The notes below the pieces were generated by a model. The model was not told the origin of the DNA. It saw only the letters and a list, made by a program, of their open reading frames with translations, and did no database searches. Shown in pieces: positions 1 through 64,000 of a stretch of 64,000 nt of DNA; within the stretch, counting starts at the first letter, position 1, and each line of letters opens with the position of its first letter. The stretch is from Phoronis australis (Eukaryota; Animalia; Phoronida): contig NMRA01000454.1 of NCBI GenBank assembly GCA_002633005.1, forward strand, positions 279,733-343,732, read 5' to 3'. A program made the translations under genes and the position numbers.

Positions 1-312
1 TCTCAAAAATGCTCCTTTCTCACGGTTCTTATCATTTTAGGTAGAAAGTTCACCGAAATTTACCATAAAGTTGACAAAAATACAATATTTACTGTTAATT
101 TGCTTTTCATCCCAATAAATATTGCTTCCGCACAAAACTTCCTTTTGATTAAGCTCGACGCTTTACTATAAGTGTGATCAGTGGGGTCCTTAACACAAAT
201 CTGTCGCTGGTAACAGTTGATTTTTTTCTAAACCATACTGTGAATCTTTAACATATAAATTGGGTAAACATTGTGCTTACATTTATAAATATATGTGCAC
301 CTGCCTTTCCAG

Positions 313-561
313 AACTCGTGGCAGCTACTAATGTCAGGGTGGTTGCAGGCGAGACAACAGTTGACGTTAAATGGACTGCAGCAAAGGGAAACAAAGACAG
401 TTACAAAGTGTCTTGCGGAATCAAGGACTTCACCGTTGATAAATTTGCTACGAAAAAACAATGTACTGGCTTGACTCCTGGAACCGAGTACGCTGTTACC
501 ATAACAACCGTCAAGGCAGGATGGGTTGATGCAAATTCATTGCCAGAGACAGTTAAAACAA
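313..561 (+). CDS. FN3 exon 1 (249 nt)
   Basis: tttccAG acceptor, GTgtgt donor; ELVAATNVRV..VKWTAA..YKVSC..GLTPGTEYAVTITTV is an FN3 signature (W, Y, LxPxTxY). Confidence 0.85.
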
Positions 562-24500: not shown

Positions 24501-27500
24501 AAGGAACCGTACCTTGATATGGAAAGTGCACGGCCGTTTCGTCCATATCTCATGACAAGTGCCTTTTTACGGGAAACGAACATCGTAATGTGTAAAAGGT
24601 TGCATTGAAAGTATTATTTATCATGTAGTTTCCAAGGTTAAGGCGAGGTTCACATTGAAATGTACGATTTCCGGAACACAACAATTGAAAAGACATGTTG
24701 AAGACTCGCTATCCCGTGTTCTTGGCGTTCCAAGTTCGCGGATGGAAAAGATCGAAATATCAAAGAAGAATGACGGTATGCCTATGTCTCACTGTATTTT
24801 CTCATCCATTTCCTTAAATCGAATTGTTATTTTCATTTCAAAGTTTCTGTTTTGTTGCATTTTTGTAACATGGCTACCAAGCTGTTTCTGTCTAGAATTG
24901 TTAAAATGCAACGCCCTTTAAAGATTGGCAGGACCTCATCTACGCTCAAAGATGTTAACGGTTATTCTGCTACAATCCTATTAAACAGTACATTCACAAA
25001 TCCATGGGTTTTAGAGCTTGTAGATATTTGACCTTTAAATTTAAAATAATCTGGCTTCAATTGGTCACGTGGCCACGCGCCTATTTATTTAATTTTTAGT
25101 TGAAACACATGTGCATCCGTAGCAAAACAACGGTATCCATCATGACAGAATTTCGTTTGATATTAATTTTCAAGATGAGATTTCAGAAGCAATCTTACTG
25201 TTTTGTACATTGTCATTTTTTGATTTCCTTCATCGACATGAAAAAAATTCTCATTTTGATTGCCACTCATGCAAAACTTGAATATTATGAAAGAATTCGT
25301 CTTGGAAAACAATAATTAAGCACAACGCCTTGAACTTTCATATGCATTGGGGCAGCCATTTCTGAAACACGATGTTCCGAAGTCAGTTCACCTTGCACTT
25401 TTTTCCAGACTTCTATCTAGATTTATTGGCTGGCGTTTTGTTGTTGCGAAAGAATCTTTTTAAAATGTATTTTGGTTATCTTTTCTTTTCTTACAGTACA
25501 CCAAATTGATGTTGTTATTCTTCCACCTACGGCGTCGTCAACAAAAAAATCGAGTGAAATATTGAAGACCTTGAGATACATATTATTCAACGTAGAATTG
25601 AAAATAACGAATGGTGACGGCGAACTCTGTACCAAAGATCCGAAAAGCCCAACACTAACGATTGTACCTGTTGGGCCAGATCCACCCAACGTAAAAGTAG
25701 GTCAGTCGTGCGCATGCGTGATTTTGAGTTTGTGCACAAGTACTCAGTAACTTGAAAGCAGAGTTGAGATAAAGAAACTGATTTAAGTTCATGTTTGACG
25801 TACACATGTACCTGTAATATTTTTTCCTCCACTTTCGGAAAGATCGCTAAAATTCAAGAAAATTTTATATCAAAAGGTTAAGTCAAACTTAAGGTGTCTT
25901 TCTTGAAAGGGACTTGAGACAAATTCACGTTTTATCGTTAAATTGGCTGATATTTAAGATTGGTCTTAGCCAAGTCCATATCTCGACCGGAAATGCAAAC
26001 AATAAATGATAAACTAAATTAAAATAACACCATGGCGTCGTCAGATACATGCGTGCACCCAGCCTAAAATGGGTGGAGGGCTCGAATTTTTGAGAATGTG
26101 GACCTATTACTAAAATTGGCGGCCGACGTTCAGAGCTATGGATTGTGCATTCGCCAACTTTTTGCAGGACCTGCCTTTTTACTGCACTTTTGTCTCGTTT
26201 TCTGCTTAATTCTGAGTGGGACCTCTTTGCCCCTGGGTGCGCGCATGAGAAACGAAACTTTTTTGCAAAAGATGGTTACTATTACAAATATATTTAACTC
26301 ATAGGAATTTCTAATCAGTGTCGTGAAAAAGTTACACATTGTAATAAAGCCCGTTGTATATTATTAAAGCGAAAACTTTAATACCACATTGCAGCAGGTG
26401 CCTTGGGCTGACATCACACCCAACGAATTGAATCGTTACTTTGTGTGGCAATAATTTCGATGTCTTTGTTGGTAATCTTAAGACTATTTATAGCTTAACT
26501 GTAGTAAAGCAACTGCAACAACGCCGAAAACGTACCTGCTGTATTCAAGTACCATTTGAATCTAGAACGAAACGGGGCATTCAGCAATATCCATATCGTG
26601 TCTGCATGCCGATATGCCTGGCATAAAGCTCACTCACGAATTAAGAATTGTGTAAATATTACGTCAGGATCGGTTTCATTGGATTCAGTTCCCCCATACG
26701 TCGGTTTAGGTGAGTCAATCGCACGTGCTTCCCGTAAACGAAAGAACCTCGCACGTAAAGTACTCGACTTCACCTCGCGATATTCCTGCGACTAAGAAGC
26801 GCAGACGCTTTTAAGTCTTCTGGATCCTTGCAAGTCGGGAATCAACCAAACTCTTTGAATTATAGTTCAAGTTGATCAACTAACTAGACAGATGGTATCT
26901 GTGACCGTGATCGAGGTGGCTATGTTGGCTATTGACAAAATGACAAAGATAGCGCCGGTTTAGAAATGTGAGTCAATATCGATGATCTATTTCAGGGGAC
27001 GATACCAAGGTGTCAATTTCCATGAAGTGTGACACTACAACGTTTGACAACAAAGGAGAGCTTGCCAAAAACGCGCTTTTAGAGGTCTTGCAAGTGGAGT
27101 TAGGGAGGATAGCAAACTTAGTGACCAAGCAAAGTGGCGATAGTAAGGAAGTATTTATTTTTTATTAGTTTCACTTGTATTTGTCTGAAGCACTTAACCA
27201 GATAGCGTTTTATGCTCCCACACGTGCAAACCTTTGTGTAGCGTGGACGGGTAGTGCACGCTACTGAAGGCTGTGTGTAGTAGCCACCTAGTGGCAATTT
27301 CAGTTTTTGGAATCCGGATATTTTCTACCAAAGCAAGTGGGTTGTCTGTCTGAATGTTAGCAGTGGACAAGTGGGTTTTATTTAACCTAAGACCACATCC
27401 GATTTTTGATGCCCCGCTTTTGATGTGCTACCCAGTGGCAAGGATATGGTACATGTACATCTGTGCCTTGGTATCTTTTAGACCTCTTGATAAATTGTTT

Positions 27501-30500
27501 GTGAGATGCAGGAACGCCAGGCTAAGGCGATGGCTGTTGACAATACTGTCGATGTTTATATGTTTACTCCTATGTTTCACGGTAGATGCTGCACTGGAAT
27601 TCACGCTCCGCCCACCGACAGCAACGTCACCAATGCCGAGCCTAGAAGCGCTGAAATGGCTGGAAATCGTAGTCAAGGAACAGGCTTTCATCATCAAGAA
27701 CAATAACGGAAAACGAATGTGCATCGGAAAAGACAATGTTATTAACCCAAGTAGGGTAGTTTTTCTGTTAATTCATACATGTATGTAGTGCTTGTAAAAC
27801 ACGATTGCTGCTAAAGAAAGTGTATTGCGGCTCAACGAAAATTTTAACTTAATACTTACGGCATCGTTTGAGTTTTGCATTTTTTTTCAAGCGGGAATCG
27901 ACACTGCCATGAGCGTAATGTTTTCTGGTTCGTGTTTGTCTTTTTGCGGGTAATTTAATCACTTCTTGGTCTAGTTCGGTCATCGAGGCAAGCCTGCATG
28001 AAACCTGCGAATCTTGTTTTTCATGTTCCAGAAACTGAATGTCCAGACGGGATGTACGGTCTAGGGTGTAAAAAAAAGTGCGACTGTGGTCCGGGACAAC
28101 CATGCGACCAGCTAGGAAAATGTGACCTTAGTAAGACACTTAATGTTTACATGCTCACTGAACCATTTAAACAACGAAATTGTGTACGAGCAATTCAAGT
28201 TGACTGTCTGAAATCAACCAATACCGTTAATGAGAGCTTGTTTTCTCCTGTTCTTGTTTAAGAAACAAAATGTCCCGACAAAACTTTTGGCGAAAAATGC
28301 AAATATAGATGCGAATGCACAAACGAGACGGTATGTCCACCCGGTATACTCCACTGTAAAGCAAGATGCAAAGAAACAACAGAGAAATCGTGCAAAGTCA
28401 CGTGCGCTGCTGGTCGTTACGGCGAGGACTGCTCAACGCAGTGCGACTGCAAGATGACAATTGCTTGTGTGGATGGAAAATGTACAAAAGGTGGGCCTAT
28501 GGTAAAATGGTGAGGCACGAAACATGTTAATCTGTAATGACTAACCATAATCGAGTTAAATGTTGCTTCGTGAAGGATTTTTTACTAAACTTTTTGCGAC
28601 CTGTCAAACTGTTTTGTTGAAACACCAGGTTAAATCATATAACCTTGAAGATTATTTTAAGTGGCCAGTAACCAAAAGCAGACGAAATATTTTAAATTCA
28701 ATGTATTTGCATATATATATATTTCTATCACGATATCGACGCACGGTATTGGCTCACATGACAAACCCATTGACAAGGTGTTCTAACAATCAACACAACG
28801 GGAAATCTGGTACTTTACTTCATACCAGCAAGTCAGAAGGCGTTGAACAAGGTGATCATATTACTGTATATTGTACAAGCTCGCCCATTTCAATCCGTTT
28901 GTAGACAAAGTGTGTGAAAAACCAAAGAAGTATGGCATAGATTGCGATTTGGACTGTCAGTGTGCAGAAGGCAGTTCATGTAGTCGTGCTGAGGGTTTGT
29001 GCGACAAGTGCAAACCGCTGAGATACGGAGAGGACTGTGCGAATGAATGCGGCTGTCTTAAGGCCAGTCAGTGTGATGGTACCAGCGGCAATTGTAAAGG
29101 AATATGCCTACGAGGCCTATGGGGACTCGACTGCAAGAACGAATGCTATTGTGAACACTGTAATCCTGTGACTGGCAAGTGTGAGGGCGACTGCCCGGAT
29201 GGGCGCTACGGTCCTCGATGTGACAAGGAGTGTCATTGCAAAGACCAAAAAACTTGCACTGCTTCCGAAGGTTGTAAAGGGTGCGATTTGGGATACAGAG
29301 GACCCCACTGCAATCTAAAGTGTTTCTGTAACGATATGAGCTCGTGCTCGCAGTACGAAAAGTGTCCACACTGCCCGACCGGTCACTATGGACTAACATG
29401 TGAACGCACATGTGATGGCTGTGTGGGAGAGGACTGTGACAGATACACTGGAGAGTGCAAGCGTGGCTGCAAGCCCGAAAGATGGGGGCCAGGCTGCAAA
29501 AACAAGTGCGCATGTCGACTTCCGGGTTCGTGCAATCCTGTACACGGGCATTGTCAAAGCGGCTGCCTCAAGGGGAGGACAGGCCCGGCTTGCAACACCA
29601 CATGCAACTGTGAAAAGGACGAGTATTGTATTGACAATACGTGTGACTTCCAATGCCCTAAGTACCACTTCGGACACGACTGTAGGAATGTGAGCCACTG
29701 TCCACCGGGAGACACTTACGATGTTTACACTGGACGATGCACAATGGGTGTTTGCGACATCGGTTACTACGGTCCCACATGTACTTCTAGATGCCATTGT
29801 AAGGATAAACGATGTAAGTCAACAGGCGAGTGTATAGACGGTGTGTGTGCTAAGGGTTGGTATGGACCGTCTTGTGACCGACGGTGTAACTGCATTAATA
29901 TTGCTAAGTGCGACGCTACTACTGGAGCGTGCGAAACATGTCCCGTCGGCTGGTATGGTATGGATTGCAGTAAACAATGCTTCTGTCGTGAAAGTGTAGC
30001 TTGCGACCGCCATACAGGGTTCTGTCCAAAAGGATGTCCGCCACTGCGCTACGGATTGGCTTGCGATAAAACATGTGCCTGTTATGATGGAGACGTATGT
30101 GAACGCTTTTCTGGCACGTGCTGTAAGCCGTCGGATAACAACAGCGTTTGTTCTAAAGGTGAGACAACAATAAGCCATTTCGGGGTTAAATATCTGCAAT
30201 TCTCATGTTGAGCATGTATACAGTGGTGAGTATTCCAAAAGTATTACATAGTTACGTAACAAGAGTATATAAACGCCATCGCACTCAAAAAATAGTTATA
30301 ATTTGACGGCATTTTATGGGCAGTGCCTCCATCAACTTCAGTTCCTGTTGCCACCCTTTTGACGCTGTGTAGGGTAAACAGTGAATACCAACGCATACTG
30401 TTTTACTCAAATATTTACTTACCAGAGTTTTTGGCATACATTTACATGAACGCTAAGAAAATCGTAAGGGTTTGCAAACTGAAACATTTGGAATAGTAAA

Positions 30501-33500
30501 GACGTGTTTCACGCCGTCCAACTTGGGTAACACGATTATTTTGTATATAAATAATTTTAAAGTTTAGTTGCAAGAAAACACCTTTTCCAATATCATTAAT
30601 CTGCCAGGGTTTGTTGGATATCATCGAAATAAAATGACTTTTAAGTGATATAATTTTGTGTTGTTAAAATCTTTTTAATGCTTAATTTCCTTGCATCTGT
30701 TTATTTTAAATTCCAAATAAATTCCGCATTATGAGATTCATTTTTCGCCGGAGTTAGTTGAAACGACCTTTTGTCATTCCACACATATAGCGGATATGTG
30801 CAGCGATAATTGGTCTCCTTGAGCACATTCATTCAGTTCACACTTTCTTTCACATTCGCGTAAAAATTAGCTGTTACAAAACCCGTTTAGTTACTGTAAC
30901 GTGAATCGGTACGAGCAATTAAGTATCAGTCCACGGATCCACCGACCACAGTACAGCCAACAAGCGGCAAGGTGGGGGTCAGCCATTCAGATCCGTGTTT
31001 AGTCTGATAAATCACATTAGGGATGAGAGAAAATGGGTGAAGTATGACACCACAAAGTTTGGTGGTTTAGGAGATACAAGGGAAGTGTTCTGGGGGGCAA
31101 AATGAGGCNTGAACAGTTAAAACTGGACAGTTTTTATACCGTGAAAACATGGCTGCGAAGCCGTAAAATGTGTTTGAGCCTATAACTTTAGAAAAACGCA
31201 ATATTTTCAAGAAATATTTTACCGCTGTTTATAGATCCCATAGGACTACCTATGTGCCAAATTTGGTGAAAATCGGGTGACCCCCACCTTGCCGCTCATG
31301 GCTGGTGCTCTCGTGGACTAGTACTTAAGTATACGTCATTGTTCACGTTAACGTCGCTTTACGAAGCCTCTCTATAATACAAATATCACCAGCGTGGACG
31401 GCGATGCAGCGCATGACAGTTCTGCATTCACTTATCAAAAGATATTATTTTAAATGAGGTGCAATTCTGACGGGAACATTTTAGTTTAATAGATGACATA
31501 CTAGATTTAGCGTGTATGTCAGTAGAATACCTGTGACTCACCCAATACCTTTACGAAAGGTTGATTGAGCTATCGAAAATAAATGACAATCCAGCTTTTT
31601 TACTGTAGCTGCGTGCGATTCAAACACGTTTTGGAGCTTTTTTTAGCAATGCATTACAATTGACACATGTGTCTGTCAGTCTATCCGTGGAATTGGAAGA
31701 CGTAAAATATTCAGTAACGGTTCACGGACACATACATGTACATGTATTAATTCGCAAGTGGAACGCATTAAAGGCAAATTGGAAGCAAAACGGCAAATGG
31801 CAGTACCTTAGTGATATCTTGAGACTCGCGTATTGACTAGAACACATCTGACCAAGGTGACAATATTCACGAGAGCACCTGAACATGCCGTATAACCCGG
31901 GATCGGTCTCAGCGAACTGAGCGCCGGCACACTGTCAGGCATAAACAAATTAGCATTCACAAAACTCATAGCACAATGTGCAGTAGGCGGAGCTAACTTC
32001 ATTCAAATTGATATTAAAATGGTTCATTTCAAAATTGCATTTCTCCGTTTATTCCACAGATAACCCTGTTTCGTGAACGTCCATTACGTAACAGTAACTG
32101 GTTGAACATTTCCCGGTGTTTAGTCCTAGCCCGCAACGAATCATCCTTAAAGTTGAGTTACAAACTCGAATTAAAATTGTAAATTTCAAGTTCTGGTCTC
32201 AACTTATACGTGTAGCAATGTGGATGGGGTCATTAAGTGCAAGCCATGGTTATGCAGTTTTATAACGGAACTGTGATGTACTCGAGTACTGTAAAATAGA
32301 CACTCATCCCGCATGCGCACTGAAGTAGAGAGCATAAAATTCCAACAGTAATTCCGAGTTGGATTTCAAGTACACAGATCAGACCCAAGTGCAGGGTTGC
32401 ATGAAACGTTCCCAAATTGGGATTTAAGTTAACTAAATATTTCACGTATTTGACTGTGTCGTACATGTATTTACTCAAATATGGAATCGTTTCCTGTCAT
32501 TTTACCCTGGTTATGAGTTCCTCTTTGACATAGGCCTATATGAAATTTTCTAATACTGTTGATTTTCATTGGACTAAGGACTCAGATTTTATAGAGACTT
32601 AGGTCCTTAAAATTGTTATGTTGCAGAAAATGGACCCTACTGATTTAAACATGTAGAATGCAAAGTATAGTTCAATGTGGATATGTATCAAGAAAAAAAT
32701 GGATTAGTATTGAAACTAAAGCGAAGTAATTAAAGACAGTTGCTGTTTTCATAAGTCCAAAAGAACTCAGTAGATTTAGGGGACTTCCATGTAGCTGAGT
32801 CTCTACTTGGGGCTGTTTTATGCAACTGTATCCAGGCCCTTAGCTTACAATAATTATAACGTGTTGTGGTAGTATGAAACGCACCACGGTATACATGTAT
32901 TGGCTGTGACGTTATGTGTGCCTACATTGGTAATAGCGTTCATACATGTGTAGCAAAACAGCACAATGTCTTGACAACAATGAGAGAATCCACAATCAGG
33001 GCTTAGGTATTTTTGTCATATACTTGTATGGTATATATGTACAACCTACTGCAGGTTTCCAAAAATTTTCAAACTTGGAAAGTGCGACTTTGACGGAGCT
33101 CATTATCCAAGGTGTTTATTTTTGTGCCCACTATTTATCTTCTAAATCAAACGCAAGTAATTGCGTGTGTCACACCTCTCACACTCCCTTTAAATCATGA
33201 CCCTCAGCGAAACGTGTCAACATCTTAACAATAATTCCACTTCAGAACCAGTCTGCACAATCAAGGACGCGTACGGCCCAAATTGTGACAAGAAATCGAA
33301 CTGCCAAAGTAATTTCAATCGTTTGAGCGGGGAATGCAGCACGTGCAAGACTGGTTACTACGGGTTTGCGTGTGAGAACCAGTGCCACTGCAAGGGTAGT
33401 GCTGGGTGTTCGGGTGATGGAAATAGCTGCCCTTCCGGTTGCGACGCTGGCTGGTTTGGGTTTCACTGTGAAAAACCGTGTCACTGTTATAAGAAGGCAC

Positions 33501-36500
33501 CTTGTGAGACAGGCAAATGTAAAACAGGGTGTGAGGCTGGATGGTGGGGTACTTCATGCGATCGACCCTGCAATTGTGAAGCCGGTGATTGTAACCAAAT
33601 CACGGGTAACTGTAGTGGTGAATGTAAACCGGGGAAATTTGGATACAGTTGCGATCAACACTGTTTCTGCCCAAGTAATGGGAGATGCAATCGCAAGACA
33701 GGTAAATGCGCCGGTGGCGTGTGCCCACCCAAGAGGTTTGGTTACGGTTGTCAAAAACAGTGTCATTGCCTGCCCGGCAGTGAATGCATCAAGGGTCTCT
33801 GCGAGAAAGGATGCGAAAAGGGATGGAGTGGACCGTATTGTCAAAGTAAGTGCTATTGTCTAGACGGCAATTGCAACAGAGAGAAGTGTGGACAATGTTT
33901 GCCTGGGAGATTTGGACCACAATGTGAAACCAAATGTAGATGCGCCGGGAAGTGCAACGAGCTGACCAACGAATGCGAAAAGTGTCCCCCCGGGAGATGG
34001 GGACTTGACTGTCAACGTGAGTGTCATTGTAGTTCTGCTGCTCCTTGCGCCAGGCTCAGCGGCAAATGCCCGGGTGAGTGCGAAGACAGGTATTTCGGGT
34101 ACGCGTGCGATCAAAAATGTCAATGCAGGAACGGCGAAAAATGTGACCAGTTCACCGGTGAGTGTCTCAGTGGAGTCTGTAAGTATGGCTACTACGGTCT
34201 AGGTTGTCAGGATAAATGTAACTGCGCGCGACCATGTGACCAGAAGACGGGGCAGTGCAAAGACGGGTGTGTTTTCAGACGTTACGGCGACACTTGCAAG
34301 AACGAGAGTAACTGTTCAGGCCCTTTCGACCGCATCACCGGAAAGTGCACGACTGTGTGCCGACCTGGATGGTACGGATACAACTGCGCACAAAAGTGCA
34401 ACTGTGACGAGGAAACTGTCGGCAATTGTCACGCGGTTACCGGGGAGTGTAGTAACGGTTGCCCACCAACCTACTACGGCTACAACTGCAAGAACCGCTG
34501 TCACTGCCTTGACAATAATGGTCGCTGCCCACGAGACACGGGGGAGTGTAGCAAATGTTTGATCGGTTGGTTTGGGTCTCGCTGTGACAAGAGATGCCGC
34601 TGTGACAAAGGCAAAGCCTGTCCTCAAGGAACATGCCCCGGTCCTTGTCAAGTGGGATGGAAAGGGAAGGACTGTTCAGAACGTAAGTCCCTTAGCTTTT
34701 AACCCTCGACATTATTCCGCGTATCGACCGAAACCGAAGGTGGAGGTCGATACACGGAATAATGTCTCGTGGGATATTATTTCATGTACGCCACTCTCGG
34801 TACGTTTTGTGCATATATTTGACATTTTCGTATAATGCACACAGGAACGTGTCATCGGTGTTACATTTTCAGCTTTGACAGAGGTGGCATGCGTTATTTG
34901 CTCATAACACGGTTGTTATTATGTCAAATAAAAGCCGTACTAATTATTAGACGACAGTTTTAGATGTTACGCAGTGGTACATGCATCTTCGACCTGATGG
35001 CAACTATTAAAACGTTTCAGCCACTGCCTGCCTCAGACCCAACAGGTTTGGAACATCATGCACGAGGGCCTGCCACTGTCTGGACGACAAGCCCTGTCAC
35101 CGCTTCACAGGCAAATGTAAAGCATGCAAGCCTAGATGGGAAGGTGACACGTGTTCCCATTGTAAGTAACACACGCTTACATGCATCTAGAAAGACAAAC
35201 CAATCGGATGACGTAAGTCAACCCTTACAAAAATGAACTTAAGTTTTCATCGAAAAACTTAAGTTTTTGGTCTGAAAAACTTAAGTTTTCATTCCCGAAA
35301 ACTTAAGTTTTTGGCGAAAACTTAAGTATTTTGGAACAAGTTTTTTGGAACGAACTTAAGTTTTCATAACTTAAGTTTTCAAAAACTTAAGTTTTTCAAA
35401 AACTGAAGTTCTGAAAACTTAAGTTTTTCAAAAACTTNAAATAAATAAATTAAGCCAATTAGTACGGTTTCCAATTCCGTTTTGTCGAGTCCCAGCGGAA
35501 GTCGTTTTAAAGATGAAACTCGTGTAGGAACAAGAAAACGTGTTGTATCTCCTTGCAGACGTGTCCCCCTGTGATAACCCAAACGTTTACGGAGAAGATT
35601 GCAAGTCGGAGTGTCAGTGCCTGACTCCAGAACACTGTGACAGCTTCACCGGTAGTTGCAGAGGCATTTGTCCTGTCCGACGGAAAGGGGACTCATGTGA
35701 CATATGTAAGGTCGATCAAAAACGCTATGTTTACACGTGCGTGATATACCAAAGTTCATATAACACGAAAGTGAATATGTAACTCAAAGGATTCAAATAA
35801 TATGCCATTCTCTTCGACCTATATCCATCAATCTCGACACTTCATAGAACCTTGAAAGTAAATGGTGTTCATAAATAGGGCAGTATTATATGCGATGATC
35901 TTAATGAACAAAGTTAAAGTTTTCTTATTGGAATAATCCTGTTAAAATTCCGTGTTTTGTTGTTATTGAATTTTCACAGCCAGATGGCGGCTACATCAAC
36001 TTAAAGTCATCAAGCGCAAAACATATTTGCGGGTTTCCATTGTGTTGGGCCGATATCCCCTTGACTATGCACGCATATCTGAATAATATAGAACACTATA
36101 CTTTGGTGGCGGCTAATTTACAGGCCTACATTTCTTTAAAGTTGTTGGGCTTACATATTCAGCAACGAATTTCATGTTTGTCTCATACTTTTCATTGTGC
36201 CTCACGTGCATGCGTTCGTTCTATAGAGGTTACAAGAATGATTTCCTTATGCAACATCGTTTTTTGTTTCAGCCAGTGGCTGCCCTCGGCCAGGAACTTT
36301 CGGCGAGTTGTGCGAGAACAAATGTCACTGCAAGCAACCAACGTGCGACGATAAAACCGGAAGCTGTGAGGGTCACGGCGGCTGCTCAGAATACTTCTCG
36401 GGTGACAACTGCTCCGTATGTACGTAAACATTAACGCCTTTGACGTGATGTGTCCTTAAAGTCCAAGTTGCGTGTGATTTCAAGTTTTACTGCAGAAGCG

Positions 36501-45289: not shown

Positions 45290-45620
45290 AATACGGACTG
45301 TTCCAGAGAGAGGTCAACAGCCGATCTACTGAAGTTCTTTTCTCGTACGTAGCACTGAGAAAGCACCGTTTTCCAGCACTTTACGTAATCTTGGGTCTGT
45401 AAATTTCAACTTTTGGTAAAACAATGTTCCCCATCTGGCGTAGTTTGGGCGGTTCTGGGCAAAGTATACATCTAACATAGCAGGGGAAATGTTGATACAG
45501 CCACTGACGTCATTGTTCTTGACGCATCTCTGGAGTTCTCTTTGGGCTCGGTTTACTATAAAGACGGAGATTGCCCAAAACTGATAAGTTTTGCCAAATT
45601 TGCCATTAATCACTGGGTGA
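45290..45620 (-). pseudogene. DNA transposase fragment (possibly Academ-like)
   Basis: YFAQNRPNYARW..GAFSVLRTRK, frameshift, then NFSRSAVDLSLEQ. The superfamily assignment is tentative. Confidence 0.55.
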
Positions 45621-48472
45621 AATGAAGGTAGTTGGCGCGCATACATAACGCAGAAGACAGCAAAAGACGGCAAATTAGCAGTTGCATCAAATGACTCGTC
45701 CGAAAACAGAGGGACGCATCTTAGACTGGTAAAATAGGACAGCGAAAAATCGAAATTCGTGCAAACACAATGTGCTATTTAAAAGTGAATCATGTGGAGT
45801 ATTCCGCTGTTTTCGCATGAACTTGTGAGGTCGCTGCTACACCAGGCGCGATGTTTCTGGTTTTCATGCCCTGACGTAAACTTGCGGACAAAAATCTTTC
45901 ACACTGTGTGGCAACCTATGTCGTACGGACTAGGTGGCTTATTAAAAATCGAAGTGCCTGGTTCCTCAATGTGATGCTTATTCATTGTGAATGGGCTTAG
46001 ATGTATAATCAATTTTGTTTCGACTCTTTATTTGTCTGATTGGGGCATCTTACTGTTATGCCCCGTGCATGTGATGTTGAACATCGGACGATTGGTTTCA
46101 AACGGTTACCTGGTGGGTTGATTTAGCTCAACTCAGGTACTTGGGCGTGTCTGGCGGGGATAACCCACCACTAGATTTGTCTGGCAGTGTCCATTCGTGA
46201 TACATGGGCTCACAGTGAATATTTTGAAACTGGTTTCACGCGGTTACCCCTTGGACTGATCTACATGTAGCTCAATGTTTGCACCTTGCTTATAACCGTC
46301 CGGCTGATACTCCCCACCACTGAAATTGTCTGGCAGTGACCAATTTTGATGCAGTGGATTACGTAGGAGGTAACCAAGGCGGTTTGAATTGGTTACCAGA
46401 AAAGTTGATCTAGCTCAATTTCTGAGTGTCATACTCTTGGCTCCCCCAAACACACCCACCAAACCGAACCGGCCAGACGGCCTTTCCCACCATTAGGATA
46501 CCCCCAGAGCACTGTGGCACCAAAGAAAATTGGTTACCTTTTCATGCCCAAAAAAGCTCTGGGATCCCGATCTAGATTAAAAGCTTGGCCAGTGTTAAAA
46601 GCACGTGGCCAGGAAGCGCGCGGTACAGTACATGAATGAACCTGTCATCAAAGACATCATTCGGGAACTATCCATTCATTAAACGGGTACCATAGCATCA
46701 CCAAGAGATGAATATTGGCACTAATTTCCGACAGTTTCTAATACTATAAAAATATTTGCGTCATTTTTAAGATAAATTGTTTGATTAACCATAATTAGTG
46801 TTTTTAATCAAAATACCCAATAAAATGACCACTGACAGTGAATGCTTACACACCCAAATTTCGCCACAAAAATTGCAATAACTTTACACTGCTTGCCTCG
46901 ATTTTGATACTTTTTCGATTTTACTGAGTAGAATGCATTTCCTTTCCGATGATAGCAAAGTACTTTTTCAAAACGAGAAAAAAAATCAAAACGAAAACAA
47001 ATGGTTCGTCTCATATTGGTTCCTGGGTTCGACTGCCTTACGTAAGGAACTAAACACCAATGCTATTTTAACATAATCCGTACGCGTAACATTCCAAAAA
47101 ATTCAACGACCACTAACTACAAACTATAAATATACTACATATACATGTACAAACGAATCACGAGATATTACTAATAAAACAAAATAATGAAGACTTTTCG
47201 AGCAAGCGATAGCACATTCAGTTGCAAGGAAAAAATGGCGGCGTTCAGGACAAGTTCCTGAACTGATGAGCNNNNNNNNNNNNNNNNNNNNNNNNNNNNN
47301 NNNNNNNNNNNNNNNNNNNNNNNNNNNNNNNNNNNNNNNNNNNNNNNNNNNNNNNNNNNNNNNNNNNNNNNNNNNNNNNNNNNNNNNNNNNNNNNNNNNN
47401 NNNNNNNNNNNNNNNNNNNNNNNNNNNNNNNNNNNNNNNNNGCTGTTTATGCCTATCAGTAGATGAGAGACCTTGCAGTTTCGAGAACCTTCTATGCGAC
47501 AGAACAGCCTTTGTTGTATTATGTTGAATTAACTAAAACACCAGGACCGGGTTGCAAAAAACTGCAAAATTATCCCCCGGATAAGTTTCATTGTTGTGTG
47601 ACGACAGGTGCCTTGTTCAATAATAAGAACGTGGCTCGGGATAATGCGTAGTCATTGTTGGTATACGGCGAATGACTTTTACGCAACAGAGCCCAGGCGA
47701 ACATGCTCGCTTAATAGAATTCAGGTTTCTGTTCTGTGTATTCGCGACATTAGCCATGCACTTATGGTGTAATATTTTCGCATATAGATCTGAATCGGTG
47801 AATTATTTCCCATAATGCATGAAGTCTATCCCATTATTTAACATTCCAACCTCATCGACCAATCATGAGAGTGGCTGCTATTTTGCTCGGGTTACTATTG
47901 TCATGTCTCCGGTCTATTTGCGAATCATTCACCTCTCACCTGCGCGATTTTGCGTGATCTTTGTTGCTTGATCCCTTGTTTTGGCTAAAATCGTGGTTCT
48001 ACAACATCCCAGCTTCCTCGGCAGGGCAGATACACCATGGTGGAAATGTGTTTGGTGCTACCAGCCAGGCTCATCTATCTTTTTAGTTATCCCATACGCG
48101 TTGAATCAGTCGTGTGCAATACGGCTATGTGATGTTGTTTTCCGTGTTCACCTCCCGCACTACTGTACTTCAACAGTGCCCTCTGTCATGGACAGTTCAA
48201 AAGGTAAGCCAATTTCGACTCGACGTCGTTAGCCGGTTTGATCGCCAAACTTTCCGAATATAGTTTAAACAGTACACACCATGGATTTTTGCACATTTTG
48301 AATGACCGGTGGCCACAGACTAAATGTATGACGTAAAATTTAGCTAAACCCATGTTTATTTTGTGTAATTAGCTCGAAATTTTGATTTTTCTTTCAATTT
48401 TGCCAATTTTCACATTTCCCGCCATGTGACGTCATGGGTTGAACACAAGAGATCAGTGACTAGCATTGAACA

Positions 48473-53724: not shown

Positions 53725-56700
53725 ATGGTATCTCTGCATGGCTGTTTTATAGGTAAAATTGTAATTGAATGCCTCGGGTCATCATCATGCTTATTCAGTC
53801 GACCATTGTACTTTCAACTGATTATCATCACATTATGTTACAGGAAGAATACTAAGGGCGTTGATGCTTCTAGGATATTTCAAATATATAGGTAAGGCTT
53901 CAACAACGTATTCGTAGATTATAATTTGCCGATTTTCAAAAATGGTGCGCTGACTTTGTGTGACACTTAGGCCTAGTACTGGATGATAATTTAGTGTTAC
54001 TTTTTCTTCACACTACTAAATGGCATTACTTGGAAGATATTCCATGCAGTCTACTAATACCATACATCAATTAATTTGAATTGCAGACCACAAATCCTCA
54101 AATTAGCCAACATTTGAGCTTGTCGGAAAATCAGCCTCTCGGATATCCGCCGTCTTCGGAATGAGCTTTCGCAGAGAGTTCGAACTCAATGGTCTGTCAA
54201 CGTGAGCTCGAGAATATTATAGCTTACGTAGCAAAGTTAATAAAGGCAAGTTTCCTCCTGGTGGCCTTTAGTGTCGAGGAACTTACTTGAGGTTAAACTC
54301 TGAGCATCGGTTTCAATCTCTAGCTTACAGTTCTAATGCGGGGGCCATCAAGAGGATTGCACTTGCATTTATGTAAACTGTGATGAAGTTGAGCGCACAC
54401 GAACGAACAATTATTGCCCGTCAATTGATATCTTAGAATTAAGTATCATACATTTACATGTCAAATTCGAGATGAACATCAAATATTAAGCTGCGCACGT
54501 CGAAATAGCGATGGCGTGAACACAATTTATCTCACGGCCGAAGTAATACTGCGCATATAACTACACAGGAACCAACTTATTCACTTGAAGATTAGACTTT
54601 TTACTTTTCACTCAACCATTTACGTTTTTGTGAATTCGTAAATTGAAGCACTCATTTGCCTTATTGGCTGGTTTTAGGGTCATTATATGACGTCATTTGA
54701 TCAAAACTAAGATTACAGAATGACAGACAATTTGATTAGTGGTTGTTATAGAAACGTGAAAAGAGGCGAAATATAGCAGGTAATACCGTTTGCGTCTCCC
54801 TTAATATGTCAAAGGAATTTGATTTGGTTAGTACTGACAAAGTGTACAAGAATTTTCCTCTCAATCTTTTGGTTTATACCCATCACACCAATCGGCGAAA
54901 AGCCATTCAATGGCGCTTCTCCTCTCTTTAAGAGCAGATTGGCTAGATTGAAGACTACTCTGACGATGAACTACAGCGCTTCTGTTTTTGACTGAATACT
55001 TTTTGCATGTACTGTTTATGTTGGCTATGTCTACGAACAGATTAAAAAGTAATCGTTTATATTACGCAGTGGTGGATCCCGTTTAAGTTAAGGTATAGCT
55101 ACTGGGTTCGTACAACCCAAGCGTGCGTTCTGTAGGCGGGAAAATCTCGCGAAAATTCAAAATAACGCAAGACTTCGCGAGATTTGGCTATGCATTTTAA
55201 GTGAAGCATGTGATCACACGTACTTCAGGTACAAAACGCTTCATGTTTGCTAATGGGTTATCAATTGAAACTTGGCACGTTATTTATCAAAACGGAGTTA
55301 TTTAGTTATAATTGCACACAACTGATGGCAGATTGGCATAAAATCAAAGAGAAAGCCTGCTTGTTTCTACTCTTAGAAAGAAAATATTTACTTTGAAAGA
55401 CTTAGTTTAGTAGATTTTTGCTTGTTCTATTTGTCGCTTAGGTCCTACATAACCTTAAAGAGTTCTCACCATGTACTGTCCTAGTTTTTGAGGTTTCAGT
55501 TTGCTAATGTGAAATGGATATCATAAAATGTATTTAAGAAAGCAAATTTTCTGCCAAATACATGTAGTCGCGATTTTTTGTCTTGTTAGTTACTTCCAAT
55601 TTTTCCGTCAAATGATGTGATACGTGGAAAACGTTCGGTCACTAGACAATCGATTGCATTGGCGTCCCACAGCAGATCAGAAGACGCGGATGATTATGAG
55701 TGAAAACTGGACAATTACTATGCAGAAGGAGAGGAAAGTGGGCACGGGAATCAAACCCAACACATGAAGAATCAGGCAATGAATTCGATTTCCCACTTAC
55801 AGTAAAAACTTTCGTCGGGTTCAGGGGCGGATCCAGTATTTTAGGGGGGGGGGGGGGCGGGNATCTGGGAGAGTCTTAGGGGGGGCATGGCCCCTTGGCC
55901 CCCCTCTAAATCCGCCACTGGGGTTTTAGGCCGTATGAACTCGACCCACTTGCACGAGAAATGCCGCAGACTTGTGTGAACCACAACCAATTGAATCACG
56001 GAGTGGCCAATATTAAAGAAATAGACACTTAATAATCAATGACAAAATACTTTTATAACATGTAGAAAATCCACACACGCACCTTTTCTTGTCTGAAAAA
56101 GGCGATTCTCTGCGGACTTTCCTCACATTTCCTCAGTATCGCATCAAAAACGGCGGAGAGACGGTCTTCCACTCTCTACTTACAACCACGATAACAACAA
56201 AATGCTTTCAAAATAATTTTGGCTTGTTTCTTAGCAACTGCTATGAAATCTCTTAAAAAGTACATGTATTACTAAAATTCTTTTTGAGTCACAGAGTCTT
56301 GGTAAGAACTATTGTAGGTCATGAACAGAAACCAGATTGTGACGTCATTATTTGGTAATTGCTACATGTAAGTTTCAACTCGTTTCAAGGTTTACTAATT
56401 GGTGGTCAACACCATGATTTAAGTACAATCCTGAGATCCCGGTACATTCCAGTGCATGCCTGTGAGCCCGGAAGATTTGGAGAAAACTGCAGCAAAATGT
56501 GCCACTGTATTAACAACGAGACGTGCAACGAACACACAGGCCAGTGTAACGCAGGCTGCCACAAACGCTACACGGGTGACGCCTGCCAACAGCGTAAGCA
56601 TGACCTCACCATAATCCCAATAATTTTTNNNNNNNNNNNNNNNNNNNNNNNNNNNNNNNNNNNNNNNNNNNNNNNNNNNNNNNNNNNNNNNNNNNNNNNN

Positions 56701-59700
56701 NNNNNNNNNNNNNNNNNNNNNNNNNNNNNNNNNNNNNNNNNNNNNNNNNNNNNNNNNNNNNNNNNNNNNNNNNNNNNNNNNNNNNNNNNNNNNNNNNNNN
56801 NNNNNNNNNNNNNNNNNNNNNNNNNNNNNNNNNNNNNNNNNNNNNNNNNNNNNNNNNNNNNNNNNNNNNNNNNNNNNNNNNNNNNNNNNNNNNNNNNNNN
56901 NNNNNNNNNNNNNNNNNNNNNNNNNNNNNNNNNNNNNNNNNNNNNNNNNNNNNNNNNNNNNNNNNNNNNNNNNNNNNNNNNNNNNNNNNNNNNNNNNNNN
57001 NNNNNNNNNNNNNNNNNNNNNNNNNNNNNNNNNNNNNNNNNNNNNNNNNNNNNNNNNNNNNNNNNNNNNNNNNNNNNNNNNNNNNNNNNNNNNNNNNNNN
57101 NNNNNNNNNNNNNNNNNNNNNNNNNNNNNNNNNNNNNNNNNNNNNNNNNNNNNNNNNNNNNNNNNNNNNNGCCACCACAGTCACAACCACCGTCGTCATC
57201 ACCACAGTCACCACCGTCACAACCACAGTCACCACCACTTCCACCACCACCAATGCCATAACCACCACCTCCACCGCCACCACCAACATCACAACCATCA
57301 CCGCCATCTCAACTACTACCACCATTGATGTCTCTTCCTTTCTCCTGGAACTCGCGACTTCCTTTCCGCTCTCTATCTAACCTAAAGCTGTTATTCCAGC
57401 TATCCAGTGCCCACTCAAGGACACGTTCGGATTGGAATGTAACAAAACGTGTCACTGTGTTGAAGGTGGAAAGTGCCATCCCATCACAGGCAATTGCACT
57501 TCCGGTTGCATGGAAGGTTGGGAAGGGGATGGTTGTCAAGGTGAGCGTTTGGTTAAAAGTACAAATAACGCTAACTGTGCAATAACATTCTTCTTCATCA
57601 ATCCAAGCTTTAGTTTCTTTCTGCCGCGACATCCCGAGTAAATTCTCATAACATCTACATGTAGTTCCATACATTAAAGCATTCCTCGTTTTACTTAAAC
57701 AATATAGCAATCGCCGAGCTTAGTATGTCTCGGATTCTCAACCGATGCTCATGGTTTTCAGTCAATACCGAAGACGACGAAACGGGCCAGTTGGGTAAGT
57801 TTACGTTACAACTCACTGCTTATGACGCATATTCACGAACGTAGGCAAAAGTCGCCTCACAAACCTTGCTAAAGCAGTCACTTGTGCGCCAAGAGTTCAA
57901 CCTGGACTCGGACGGTTTGATCTCCCAATTTGATCTGTAAATATTCTGGGGGTTCGTATCTGCTATTAAAATCATTTAGATTAAATGTATCATTTTAGAA
58001 ATGGTGTTTTCAATTCCTTACCCCACAATGTGGGTGCAGCCATTAAAACTAACATTCTACGTGACCCAAGAGCAGAAATATTGAACAAAATGTATTTTAC
58101 GGGCGCTTTTTGTGAAATTTCAAGATGGCCACCAAGATGGTCACCAATAAAATTAAAATTTCCAATTCACTGACCTCAGAACTGCAGGTGCAGCCATAAA
58201 ACCTAACATTCTCAGTGAACCAAGAGCTGATATATTGGGCAAAATCCATTTTTAAAAATCCAAGATGGCCTCCAAGATGGCCACCGAAAAAATGGAATCA
58301 ATTATTTTCTGATTCGTCTCTCCATGAGGTTTCCAAAATGTATTGTTTCTACTTTCCGCAAAAAAATTCAACGAATGTCAAAATTTGGATATAGTGAACC
58401 TGACTATTGTGTTGTTAATTGCCATTCTACTTTAAACGGGGATCAAGAGGTGTGTCTATGAATGAGTGGTCAAGTTATGAAAGAGGCAAGGGACGCGAAA
58501 ACTAGTCAAAATATCTTCTTAAACAACTACTGACGAAATTACAAAGCCGCAACGTCTACTGCAGCGTTGTGCACTTTTCCATATGGTGGAATTTCGAGAA
58601 ATTATCATCAAATTTACAGTTTTTGAAATACGCGCTAAAGAAAACTCTGTAGTCACCACAGAGATTCTAATCTCGCTCCCACAAATGCGCGCACGCGCTC
58701 ACAATCATTCGCGAAGCATCTGACTGACAAGATGGAAATAAATGTCAGATTATGATATGTGATTACACTGCGAATCTTATGTCGACATTACAGTACGAGG
58801 CAAGCAAATAAACCAAGCAATCTCCCGAAATAAGAATTCCAAGCGAATTTCCAAATCTATTAGAATATTACTGTACATCAATCATTAAATTTAAACACAA
58901 CTTACATCAACTGCTTTTAAATTTATCTGGCTGCTGGTTGACGTCAAAGGTTAAAGGTAACAATTTCCATACACGTGGTGATGCGTCTATGTCTTGCCTT
59001 GCCAAGTAACAAAAAGTGGTTTGCCCCATGTGTCCGAGAAATCGACAAAATGACTAGGACTTGACAGATCGATTTTATTTTTGAAATTTGAAATTAAAGA
59101 AAAAACTTTGACATCAACAGTATTTCATTTTTACGAGCAAACTGTAAGAACCTTATATATATATATTTATATATACATGTATATATGGGGTGGAGGATCT
59201 CAAATCACTACGATGGCCTTGTCTATTGTATAGATCAAATATTTTTTTCGACAGAGGCGTTTTTGACATTGTTTATTACTTTGAAAATAAATGTGGTCAT
59301 GTGAATATCGTGTCGAGTAGACAGTTTGGGCAGGGAACTACTTTGACCAATGTAACTTAGCCTGTCTTTCGCATTCCATGCCTATTTAGGATAGACTACA
59401 GTGAGTTTCTACTCCATTATCGCACTTGATAAGATTAAAGTAGGGCCGGGTGTGAATACGTTTGCTACCAAAACATTTTCCAGAAAAAAAAACGCTATAG
59501 GCCTACTGCTCTCTTCTACGTCTTTGTCTATACATCAAGTGTTGTAGTACGTCTATTTAATAATCTTCAATAGCAAAAATTTATTCCAGTCTCAGACGAA
59601 ACTGCTGTCTCAAAGGACGATCTGCTTATATTGTTAGCCGCTGGTTTACCCGCCGTGTTTATCATCATTGTCGCTATCATAGTGTGCACGTGCTGTCGTA

Positions 59701-59876
59701 AGAAACCACAGTCGCTCGCACCGCCGAGCGACAACATAGCAATGAGCTCTCACATGACGGAAGAGTCAGTTGCAGACGTTCAGTCCGCCATGACGGAGGA
59801 ATCCGAAGAGTCGATGACAGCGTCGTCTGCGTCCAGTTTCACGAGTTCGATGACCGGCTTTAGCTCATCATACTAA
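53725..59876 (+). CDS. Small EGF-like type I membrane protein gene (about 225 aa): exons 53725-53752, 53844-53891, 56453-56593, 57400-57540, 57762-57794, 59590-59876
   Basis: All junctions are GT-AG phase 1 and sum to 678 nt. Protein: MVSLHGCFIGRILRALMLLGYFKYIVHA (signal-peptide-like, ending VHA), 2 EGF-like repeats, NTEDDETGQL, TM LLILLAAGLPAVFIIIVAIIVCTCC-RKK, Ser-rich tail. The first two exons are less certain, and an N gap lies in intron 3. Confidence 0.7.
55822..55920. mobile_element. Short MITE with CAGGGGCGGAT..ATCCGCCACTG termini
   Basis: Imperfect terminal inverted repeats around a G/C-run hairpin core. Confidence 0.65.
57171..57324 (+). repeat. Degenerate (ACC)n microsatellite bordering an assembly gap
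   Basis: Imperfect acc/cac triplet array directly after the N run. Confidence 0.85.
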
Positions 59877-60120: not shown

Positions 60121-62989
60121 CGCTCTGCACGGCATGAGACGGGCATAACACAAATGAGCTTGCGAGTTGAAAACCGGAAGACCTTATTACACAAGTAATT
60201 CGAGAAGTATTGCTGAGGTGATGGAAATTACAGAGAGCTAAAAGAAATTCGTGATTTCCATCATGTATGGATAGCAGTTGCGTGGATTATGTGTTCATCA
60301 ACCGATTTCACGAACGTGTAGTCTAGTCTAAATGGCCCGCTGGATGTCGCTGTCCACCCAATTTTGGCATTTACTTACAGGTGGATTTCGTCGTGGCTAA
60401 GTTGTCATTGTTGTTTTCTTAACCAAATCGCTTGAGGGTTTAAAAGTAACTGTCTGGGAAATGCATGCAATACCGAAAACACATGTCTTTGGAATTACTT
60501 GTAACTTGTAACACATTCTTAGTATAGAAATGGACACTCCCCAAAATATCGGTTTATTCCAGAAAATGCTATGGTCTTTCATTTTCAGCTAAATTTGGCA
60601 GGTCTGGCGTCATCTGTATGAGGTATTTTTCAAATAAAGATTGTAAAAAGTAATCCATATCCTGCTAAAGCATGCCTTCAACAGCACTCAAAAATCAAAA
60701 ATAACAGATCGTGTCAAAGGTTTCAATTTGAATGTTTGGACTGGGTAACCGCTGGTGTTCACAGGTCGTACAGAATTAAACAGATTAAGGACGCAATATC
60801 TGCCAATGCCGAAAATCATCAGATAGGAGACATATACGGTTTTATCCTCCAATGACTTACAAGAAACGCAGCCGCCGTTGTGTGAGTAATTCCGCTACCT
60901 CGTGCCGTAAAGGTTCTTCAAACACACTCTTTGTTCAAAGTCGGCACTGTAGGCCGCCACTGTTCTGTTATTACTAAAATAGTAGATTTTATAGTGCATT
61001 TTGTACTGCGTACAGTTGTCACTGCTATAAACCTTGTTATCAATCGTACACTTAACAATCAACTGTGAATTGGCCACGCTAGGACCACAAAGAAGATTAC
61101 TTCCTATCACAGCCGCTAGGGGGCGCTGACTTCTAAAGCATAAATGACAGGGGCTTAAACGACGGGCAACGGGCCTGTTTGGTAAGAAATTCGCTCTCAC
61201 GTTCCACACAATTATTTCCGAAACATACTTACATGTAAATCACACTGAGAAGTGCCAGCGTAAGACTGAATTTCTGTCCTACGTGTAGGTCATCAGTCAC
61301 TATGAAATTAAACTCTGGTCAAATGGGCAGCTCAACATTATTTTGTACCTGAAGTGAGTTATCCTGAAATAAAATTGTAAATTGTCGAATTCATGACTTT
61401 ATAGAGTGTCATATTTCAGGGCAAACAAGATTGATAATGTTCTGATAGTTTGTAGCAAGTGAATGGTGCCAACTGAAGGTGTGGGCAATAAATAATGTCT
61501 CATACTTTTACGAAAATGTCTTCAACAAGAACACCAAACAACTTCAAATACGCATGCGCTCCTCGAAGTCCAACATACACCAACACTGAAAGGACAGGGC
61601 ATAGGAAAACATCAGGTGTCCGTATACTACCACTGGGTTAGGCATTATTGTTGTGATAATGAACGCGAGTATGGTTACATCAGCAATGTGAAGTATTTTC
61701 CACTTGTTAGGGATTCGCTATTGAACTAACACGTATTTGAAAAGCGAGGCACGAGAAAGGTCAAAACAAAATTTTGCATATGTCAGATTACTGGCACTAA
61801 TGCAGCGTGACTGAACTTCTTAACATGACATGTATGTCTCATTAAATTATCAATACGCAAATGAAGTACAACTTTACAAACAACCTCGGTGTGCCGGAAA
61901 CAATCCGAGATCCAATTACAACTTCGTGAAAGTCTCGTTCTGCGAAAATATTTTTATGTAAATGAGTATGGTAATAGGTCATTGTTGACCCTAATGAAAC
62001 AAGGCTTATTGTTATTGCTTGTTCACTGATTTCACTATCAACGAACGATTCGGTAATATTTGGAATTACTGGGGTTTTCTATATGTTCGCACTTGTTTTT
62101 CAGTGCATCATTTGTTATGTTGTCTTGAAAACCGCAATTTATTTACAAATTGTTTCTATTCCTGATTATACTTGTACATAGGATTCTCCAAAAATTCACA
62201 AAGTGGCACGTGCTGCAAATTTAAATATTCGCGGTTTTATTTATCTTTAAACTGATACTTGCACGCCAGTTCCATATCTCTATGTGACTGCCTGATCAAG
62301 TTACATGTAGTTAAAAACACAACATATACTGGCGACATGAAAGTAGGTCATTAGTGAAAAGGTCATCTATTTGCAGATTTTTTTTTGTTTCCAATACAAG
62401 TTGTAAATGAATACAACTGCTCTTTGTTCAGCTGAGATGATGTTCGAACAACATTGTCGTTTAGTTCCAGCTATACATAAGCATAGTTAGGAGCATGCAA
62501 ATACATGTTTAAAGTCGACGCAAAAAGTCCTCATGGTCCAATGAAGCCTCGACCGATTTGCAATGTTCACGTATTTACTTTTGAGGGGCATCATAGATTA
62601 TAGACAACAGATTCGCAACTCCGGCATATTCTTACGAGCTGAGTTGAACTCTCCTGACCTATCTGCTGCAGTTTCCGGTCAGTGTAATTTGACGAGAAAT
62701 ACTTGCATCTACTTTATTGTCCAAAACAGCGAAAAAACATTAATTTATATTAATTTCGGTATTGAAACGCTTTTCAAAGTCTTTCAATAGTAGAAGTGTT
62801 GGTATTGTGAGTACTTTTGCCAATGCTACTGGTAATTAATTTCAAAATTCAAACTTCGGTTCCGACCCTTTATGTCGTCTGCTTGCCCAATAGCAGCATA
62901 GTTATCGGACAGTTTTTGATTTACGGTTCACATAGGCCTACTGAGAAAACTACGAAAGCGTGTTGATAAATCAACATTCTCAAGTGAGC

Positions 62990-62998
62990 AGTTCTTCT
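62990..62998 (-). promoter_or_regulatory. Candidate histone downstream element (U7 snRNA-binding HDE)
   Basis: Purine-rich AGAAGAACT begins 14 nt 3' of the distal stem-loop. Confidence 0.5.
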
Positions 62999-63012
62999 GG
63001 GAAGTGTTGAGT

Positions 63013-63028
63013 GGCCCTTAAAAGGGCC
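63013..63028 (-). terminator. Histone-mRNA-type 3' stem-loop (distal)
   Basis: Minus strand CCAAC-GGCCCT-TTTA-AGGGCC-ACTCA: 6-bp stem, 4-nt loop and A/C-rich flanks matching the SLBP consensus. Confidence 0.85.
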
Positions 63029-63053
63029 GTTGGTTGTAGGTATAGCGTGAAAT

Positions 63054-63069
63054 GGTTCTTAAAAGAACC
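63054..63069 (-). terminator. Histone-mRNA-type 3' stem-loop (proximal)
   Basis: Minus strand TCAAC-GGTTCT-TTTA-AGAACC-ATTTC, starting 10 nt after the TGA stop. Confidence 0.8.
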
Positions 63070-63079
63070 GTTGAATAAT

Positions 63080-63396
63080 TCAACATAAATCACACAGTAT
63101 ACCATGCTCACTCAAGTACTGAAGGTCCTCTTCATTCAAGTTTTCATCTGGGAAGGTTGGATGAAAACAGAGGAGATGACAATATCGATGACAGTTGTAA
63201 CACCTTAGATAGATATTACCGTTCACCAACGTTGTCACGAACCCTGCATCGTTCAGTTCTTGTTCCTGTATCCACAAATAATCCTGAACTGTAGGAAAAA
63301 ATGACAAACAACACAACGAATCAAATTTCGAAAATCATCGCCTTCGTGCGATTCCGTGTTGCTGTCACCAGACTGATGTTCTTCTCCAACGTCCAT
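63080..63396 (-). CDS. Small PHD-finger-like (C4-H-C3) protein of about 105 aa, requiring a -1 frameshift near 63296-63301 (or a pseudogene)
   Basis: MDVGEEHQSGDSNTESHEGDDFRNLIRCVVCHF/FPTVQDYLW..IYLRCYNCHRYCHLLCFHP..GILCDLC* gives Cx2C..Cx2Cx4Hx2C..Cx2C only when the two frames are joined. Confidence 0.65.
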
Positions 63397-63889
63397 CGTA
63401 AAAAATCGACGTTGCAAGTGATGGAAACTTGTCTACGCTCTCGTCCTTTGTTTCTAACCTTTAACCCATTTTTTAATAAAGGGGTGTACTGTTTTTGTCT
63501 CATGTTGATAGTGCATAATCTATGGTTTTACAATGTATTAATCGTGTTAAATGCATATATATGAACTGGTCTCATTGAGGTGCACAGCAAATAAATTAAC
63601 TATAACAAATTAAAGTTTTGAAAATATAAAGAGCAGTAACAGACTCCCTAAAAATCAGGCTTGTTTTCGAAAGGTTTGCGCCATTGGTGATCCGATTAGT
63701 TCAATCGCTTGCGGCGGGAAAATGATAGACCCAGTTATTGTGCGCGTGTACACTGTATCAATGCTTTGTATCTTATTCTTATTTGTCTAATCTGTTGATA
63801 CAGTAAATTTCCTTATTTATGCCCATCCTGATTTAACCCCGACTTGAGCTCCTTGGGTTCTACCATATTGGGGCTGTCCAGGGACTCAC

Positions 63890-64000
63890 GTGCATGCGCG
63901 CACCCAGTCTTCAAAATGGGGGGCTCGAATTCCTGACGTTATGGACCTGTTGTTAACAAGAGAGCGGGCAGACTTTTTTGCCCACTTCGCCAAGGGGGGG
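63890..64000 (+). repeat. Interspersed repeat also present near 26045-26170
   Basis: catgcg(t/c)gcacccag..aaaatggg..gggctcgaatt..tggacct is shared by both loci. Confidence 0.65.

Follow-up and report, generated by a model that had tools for sequence, protein, structure and literature searches.

How does an open reading frame (ORF) for a non-histone protein come to end in the 3′ signal of replication-dependent histone mRNAs, and could the signal be used there? The question is raised by positions 62990–63396 of the window, by which we mean the whole 64,000-nucleotide stretch analysed here, where a PHD-like ORF on the minus strand runs into two tandem hairpins of the histone type. According to the passages available from PMC4604434 and PMC5054213, no mRNAs except histone mRNAs are known to end in this stem-loop.

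Histone-type hairpins behind a non-histone ORF

Re-reading the minus strand bore out the arrangement described in the sequence-only reading, including the CAAC flanks, the spacings of 10, 25, and 14 nt, and the purine box. The TGA stop of the ORF (63082–63080) is followed, after the 10-nt spacer, by the core of a first histone-type stem-loop (SL1, 63069–63054) and, after a further 25 nt, by a second stem-loop (SL2, 63028–63013), which lies 51 nt past the stop and has its predicted cleavage site near 63008. The HDE-like purine box AGAAGAACT (62998–62990), assigned at motif level, is located 14 nt beyond SL2, and no such box follows SL1. The motif AGAAGA is likewise found 14 nt behind SL2 and not behind SL1; its chance of occurring in such a slot is 0.003, that of AAGA 0.064. 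In both SL1 and SL2, a 6-bp stem with G-C at position 2 carries a 4-nt loop with U at position 3. Their likeness extends to the stem ends, the loop, and the CAAC 5′ flank that precedes the stem, but not to the outer flanks.

A scan of both strands of the 64-kb window for strict hairpins (GG..CC, 6-bp stem, UYUN loop) returned SL1 and SL2 only, with a mean of 0.09 per window expected by chance (100 dinucleotide shuffles). The sequence-only reading had assigned both hairpins to the histone class, and comparison with Rfam RF00032 (Histone3; gathering score 34 bits) upholds this for SL2, which at 36 bits is the sole gathering-level match in the window, whereas SL1 stays below the threshold (22.8 bits, E 0.0018) and fits the core only. 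In a folding computation, each of the two folds into the hairpin as drawn, and the 161-nt region around them yields a z of −5.2. A third perfect hairpin (62976–62961) was dropped because nearly all other copies carry a different, pair-breaking base at 62965.

The four differences between the SL1 and SL2 stems add up to a full exchange of the base pair, from T-A to C-G, at each of positions 3 and 4. These compensatory swaps had been put forward as a sign of selection on structure. Correction of palindromes can also yield paired changes. Further, Y-R variants of the stem at these positions occur among histone genes as well, for example the GGUCCU stem of fly H3 RNA in the excerpted source. Thus, the swaps stand as such, but selection within the element is not required to explain them, and the covariation may predate capture of the signal.

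In histone mRNAs, the conserved sequence lies 25–60 nt from the stop, stem position 2 is G-C, loop position 3 is U, and a purine box is present, as given in the available parts of bioRxiv 10.64898/2026.10.14.759114 and PMC5435866. Measured from the stop to the 26-nt conserved core, SL2 falls inside this range (46 nt) and SL1 outside it (5 nt). With the histone mRNA 3′ end (RF00032; SLBP, U7 snRNP, CPSF73), SL2 has in common the 6-bp stem, the UUUA loop, the A/C-rich flanks, the canonical distance to the stop, and a purine box ~15 nt downstream. Unlike histone mRNA 3′ ends, the signal of the window stands behind a non-histone ORF in a repeat, and its hairpins occur in tandem, the first only 10 nt past the stop. 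The accessible text of PMC5054213 gives a conserved UCUUU in U7, with which GAAGA of the purine box could pair, forming one G-U wobble. The first AATAAA/ATTAAA occurs only at 62718, ~295 nt past SL2.

No histone gene lies near the locus within the window, and none of 53 frames (at least 22 aa, 62300–64000) matches a histone family. As histone stem-loops lie a median of 30 nt behind the stop, random capture should often bring histone coding sequence along; here there is none. The hairpin signal beside a non-histone ORF, without an adjacent histone remnant, is thus confirmed as real, in agreement with the sequence-only reading.

A frameshifted copy of a multicopy element

The window holds one frameshifted copy of a multicopy element with a small PHD-like gene. 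The 5′ part of the ORF (63396–63298, minus strand, 33 codons) comprises the ATG, the acidic N-terminus, and the first CxxC, while the 3′ part (63295–63080, minus strand) contains CxxC-x4-HxxC ... CxxC and ends with the TGA. A one-base frameshift at a T6 run (63301–63296, minus strand), where other copies have one more base, splits the two parts, and the window copy is therefore not intact. In P0001, which is 91% identical over 81 residues, the T-run site is read through and both parts are continuous. The apparent loss of one base from the homopolymer explains the shift; a programmed −1 frameshift was considered as the alternative. By contig depth, the extra base at 63295 is found in 152 of 288 (X1), 438 of 734 (X3), 31 of 31 (X6), and 0 of 4 (X5); X1 and X3, which are DNA runs, are the same sample, and ~40–47% of their depth is without the read-through base. 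The intact product would be an acidic protein of 105 aa with C4HC3 spacing. All eight zinc ligands are present over the two frames of the window copy and are conserved in the family alignment, and the window ORF fragment scores 13.5 bits against Pfam PHD (curated cut-off 24).

A single stretch of 80 bases is overlapped by five X3 pieces, more than two alleles could yield, which marks the window copy as multicopy. Among the contig pieces listed for the X1/X3 sample, 10 of 16 overlap the ORF, with 12–47 differences each. Depth itself is no copy number, but the contrast between individual contigs at 152 and 438 and others at 2–14 suggests tens of collapsed copies. In the main X6 contigs with the read-through form, both hairpins are unchanged. 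The six differences of X6 record 28 (62971–63266) all lie outside the stems, the purine box, and the zinc ligands, and the read-through form is seen in record 29. With ~0.65 stem changes expected in 32 nt, their absence from X6 does not reach significance. Organism B has 62961–63087 with two differences. One copy has lost SL2 by a 57-nt deletion (joint 63000–63058), and one diverged piece aligns only to just past SL1. X6, guessed to be RNA, was dropped as expression evidence because its depth follows DNA repeats and does not fall past the hairpins; X7 (share 0.07) was left out.

The left end of a dispersed repeat (62592–62690, plus strand) starts with CATAGA. In 64 X3 contigs the letters before 62592 disagree (agreement 0.41), and most of 62655–63983 is spanned by X6 contigs whose depth is similar (19–54); we therefore take 62592 as a likely end of the element. 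Its other end lies past 64000 or is masked by a separate high-copy short repeat, MITE-like, which starts at 63893 (63893–64000, plus strand) and has a second copy at 26048–26108. As a candidate far terminus, CATAGATTAT at 63524 was rejected, being a 10-nt inverted match without target duplication across which contigs run. A further high-copy short repeat, ending in TTAA, is situated just outside the left end (62395–62512).

Upstream of the ORF, an E2F-like site and a CCAAT box (63683–63721, minus strand) form a possible promoter. The evidence is weak, and the pairing is not specific because a CCAAT lies no more than 120 nt from four of the window's eight E2F-like sites; it recurs upstream in the relative loci L002 and L003, and not in L005. 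Several upstream ATGs lie between these motifs and the ORF start. Directly before the ATG, relatives show an apparent splice acceptor (L002, 800–825), and the window has a T run ending in ACG, without AG (63397–63410, minus strand). Losing a 5′ intron would suit histone-type processing.

The surroundings are of mixed character. Large exons with EGF-like cysteine repeats and a transmembrane exon (28856–30211, 33194–34702, and 56359–59876, plus strand) look by eye like a MEGF-like receptor gene, and the element is located ~2.7 kb past the last visible of these exons, on the opposite strand. Four repeated FN3-like exons, 68–91% alike, occupy 221–7286 (plus strand). Read by eye, the EGF-like and FN3-like exons mark the host as an animal. 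At 7934–9324, 34-nt inverted arms, 94% complementary and 1323 nt apart, likely belong to a non-autonomous DNA transposon. Two ORF fragments resemble decayed transposases; that at 12834–13556 (minus strand), which we take to be Kolobok-like, has no Pfam match, and that at 45326–45778 (minus strand) a weak one to DUF6589. A near-identical 1848-bp tandem duplication (17093–19819) with a single N at its junction (18940) may be an assembly artefact; within it, ORFs of 122 and 140 aa overlap, neither with a clear Pfam family.

Relatives of the protein and their transposase-like neighbours

A homologue search returned seven representatives and, with the family profile, 29 proteins, mostly of 107–111 aa and unnamed, one of them annotated from Dreissena polymorpha (zebra mussel). 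Judged by sequence, the family is one of ~110-aa stand-alone PHD-like proteins; no fused longer forms were found among 7994 candidates, which is weak evidence, and none of 114 candidates in prokaryote genomes was confirmed as a member. The C4HC3 ligand spacing is shared with PHD fingers (PF00628, PF22908 PHD_NSD), from which the family differs in standing alone and in a ~30-residue helical insert that separates the first Cys pair from the second. Against PHD_NSD (PF22908; cut-off 23.9), the relative P0003 scores 27.7 bits and P0016 20.2 bits. The predicted models of P0003 and P0016 (pLDDT 69 and 80) have PHD fingers as top VIA structural neighbours, at low scores (Z 3.8–4.0, rmsd 2.6–3.6, 52–64 aligned), and Foldseek matches are weak (E at least 0.28), with the Slx1 RING ranked too. 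PHD clusters in the ESM Atlas at 0.84–0.88 serve as a lead only. On balance, the label "PHD-like" is fair, and the earlier description of the upstream protein as non-histone, PHD-like, and acidic holds.

Within the family, the window copy groups with P0001 and with P0002, which is 65% identical, in a subfamily on a long branch (support 100/99 in a 28-row tree whose bootstrap was not fully settled). Its branch length of 2.12 changes per column also fits relaxed selection. Damage marks each of the three subfamily members seen in full: the window copy has its frameshift, P0001 has lost the His ligand and the C-terminus, and P0002 the first CxxC and one Cys. The P0003 cluster has five members, 88–98% alike, on five contigs of 0.7–9 Mb and thus appears spread as a mobile gene would be.

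A metagenome scan for relatives gave five loci, of which L002–L005 were kept as animal-like; L006 was a false 19-residue match in a prokaryotic contig and was dropped. In all four animal-like loci, the PHD ORF is directly followed by a long transposase-like ORF, starting within ~35 nt of the stop, that carries a DUF7869 domain or its N-terminal part. As L003 and L004 are 87% alike, the four loci represent three distinct families. L004 scores 27.7 bits against PF25273 (DUF7869; cut-off 26), and the atlas clusters for the transposase-like ORF fall in the same family, one of them with 11% DDE_Tnp_ISAZ013. By its motifs, the DUF7869 ORF is presumably a Sola1-type DDE transposase. The two-gene layout, unannotated, occupies 820–3170 in L002, 3088–4099 in L003, 1–2465 in L004, and 2740–3530 in L005. 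The PHD stop nearly abuts the DUF7869 start (the gap is 2 nt in L003 and L004), which hints at a single transcript or at coupled translation.

The DUF7869 (PF25273) elements of L002–L005 and the window element have in common a C4HC3 protein of ~105–110 aa (34–44% identity) with an acidic N-terminus, encoded by an ORF without internal introns. In contrast to the relatives, the window copy has a shorter C-terminus and carries the hairpins where their transposase stands. A search of the 64-kb window found no DUF7869 transposase (tblastn best E 1.4), and no termini shared between the window element and L002–L005 were found. Histone stem-loops are absent from L002–L005, both in Rfam (no match at E ≤ 0.5) and in a pattern scan. 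The sequence-only reading had named homologues without hairpins as evidence against histone-type processing, and the distant relatives are such homologues. Since they lack the hairpins, these are a lineage-specific gain rather than a family trait, and the protein does not need them. The adjacent transposase-like ORF in four of four loci, together with the P0003 cluster on five contigs, favours a transposon origin. The mobile-element origin proposed earlier thereby gains support, and the PHD-like gene likely goes back to the first gene of a DNA transposon of the DUF7869 type.

Origin and possible use of the hairpins

We lean, at slightly better than an even chance, towards the reading that the element is a DNA-transposon derivative whose first gene gained a histone-type 3′ end in the transposase's place and likely uses SLBP/U7 processing. 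Use of the signal is favoured by its sense orientation right behind the stop and by the canonical spacing of SL2, the purine box after SL2 only, and the distant poly(A) signal. Against it count the damaged copies, the copy with SL2 deleted, the long branch, the upstream ATGs, and SL1, which is too near the stop and below the Rfam cut-off. In the main rival reading, repair would have supplied a broken non-autonomous derivative with histone 3′ ends, and the derivative would have spread in trans, with idle hairpins and a decaying gene. Such passive capture, which we regard as unlikely but deserving of real weight, accords with the many damaged copies, the relatives without hairpins, the long branch of the subfamily, and the Y-R variants among histone genes mentioned above. 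However, it needs luck to produce two hairpins in sense, canonical spacing, and a purine box with neither a histone remnant nor a nearby poly(A) signal, and the read-through form is the main form in X6 and makes up about half in X1/X3.

It is rather improbable that the host took the PHD-like gene of a transposon, gave it a histone-type 3′ end, and amplified it, perhaps close to histone loci, for use as a chromatin factor coupled to replication. The repeat end with many different flanks 400 nt downstream, linked by contigs, speaks against such domestication, as do the many damaged copies and the lack of a nearby histone gene, although no transposase is in view, the divergence from the transposon-borne relatives is strong, and the family is common to organisms A and B. 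The sequence-only reading had offered a Maverick/Polinton or viral cargo gene as an example of mobile origin. As the window does not reach the element's far end, larger cargo could be attached, but the relatives are tied to the DUF7869 ORF and the viral collections (IMG/VR, BFVD) hold no real match, which leaves this proposal very improbable. IMG/VR gave one chance phage match for the protein and none for the family profile or the two hairpin patterns, and BFVD none at E ≤ 0.001. The match L001 (E 1e-3) was dropped as a sign of viral origin because it falls inside a large unrelated ORF of a phage locus. Polymerase, integrase, capsid, and ATPase genes were not seen among the ORFs of the window or of L002–L005, where Pfam was applied to selected ORFs only.

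If the favoured reading, a transposon derivative with a working histone-type 3′ end, is correct, exchange of the transposase for the histone 3′ end would have yielded a short mRNA. SLBP would bind SL2 and perhaps SL1, which may serve as an additional SLBP site or represent an earlier signal since superseded. U7 would pair with the purine box, and CPSF73 would cut ~5 nt past SL2, so that the mRNA of intact copies would likely carry no poly(A) tail. This mRNA would then be translated and removed like histone mRNA, in S phase or with storage in the oocyte, and the element would move by a transposase encoded elsewhere or past the window edge. RAG2-PHD is a helper of a recombinase. By conjecture, the element's protein might help the parent transposase in trans by reading chromatin, being made available while chromatin is copied.

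The stronger claim is that a transposon family took over the SLBP/U7 pathway. The natural non-histone mRNA of intact copies would then end in a histone stem-loop and would supply a PHD-like chromatin reader during S phase or in the egg, bypassing poly(A)-dependent control. We rate this claim, the first known case within the reach of our search, at slightly short of an even chance. Pack-MULE-type and other non-autonomous DNA transposons likewise carry an accessory gene or host-derived piece, according to the available part of PMC12477816, whereas the captured piece here is an RNA-processing signal, in register behind the element's own gene. Within the literature searched, to which subscription papers, Repbase, and supplements do not belong, no transposon or non-histone gene with this signal is reported, including the portions at hand of PMC13525598, PMC3597683, PMC4455052, and PMC12477816; PMC12210499 has no term matches, and a PHD ORF in Sola elements was not found reported. 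The component parts are already known, their combination is not reported in the portions of the literature searched, and the function is a putative one.

Even if the hairpins are idle, the analysis establishes, for transposons, an unannotated family of accessory proteins that are PHD-like and stand alone. If they are used, the element would be a natural exception showing that the SLBP/U7 pathway can be borrowed. Such an exception would suggest how transposons could tie their expression to DNA replication or to the store of maternal mRNA, and poly(A) RNA-seq would overlook transcripts of this kind.
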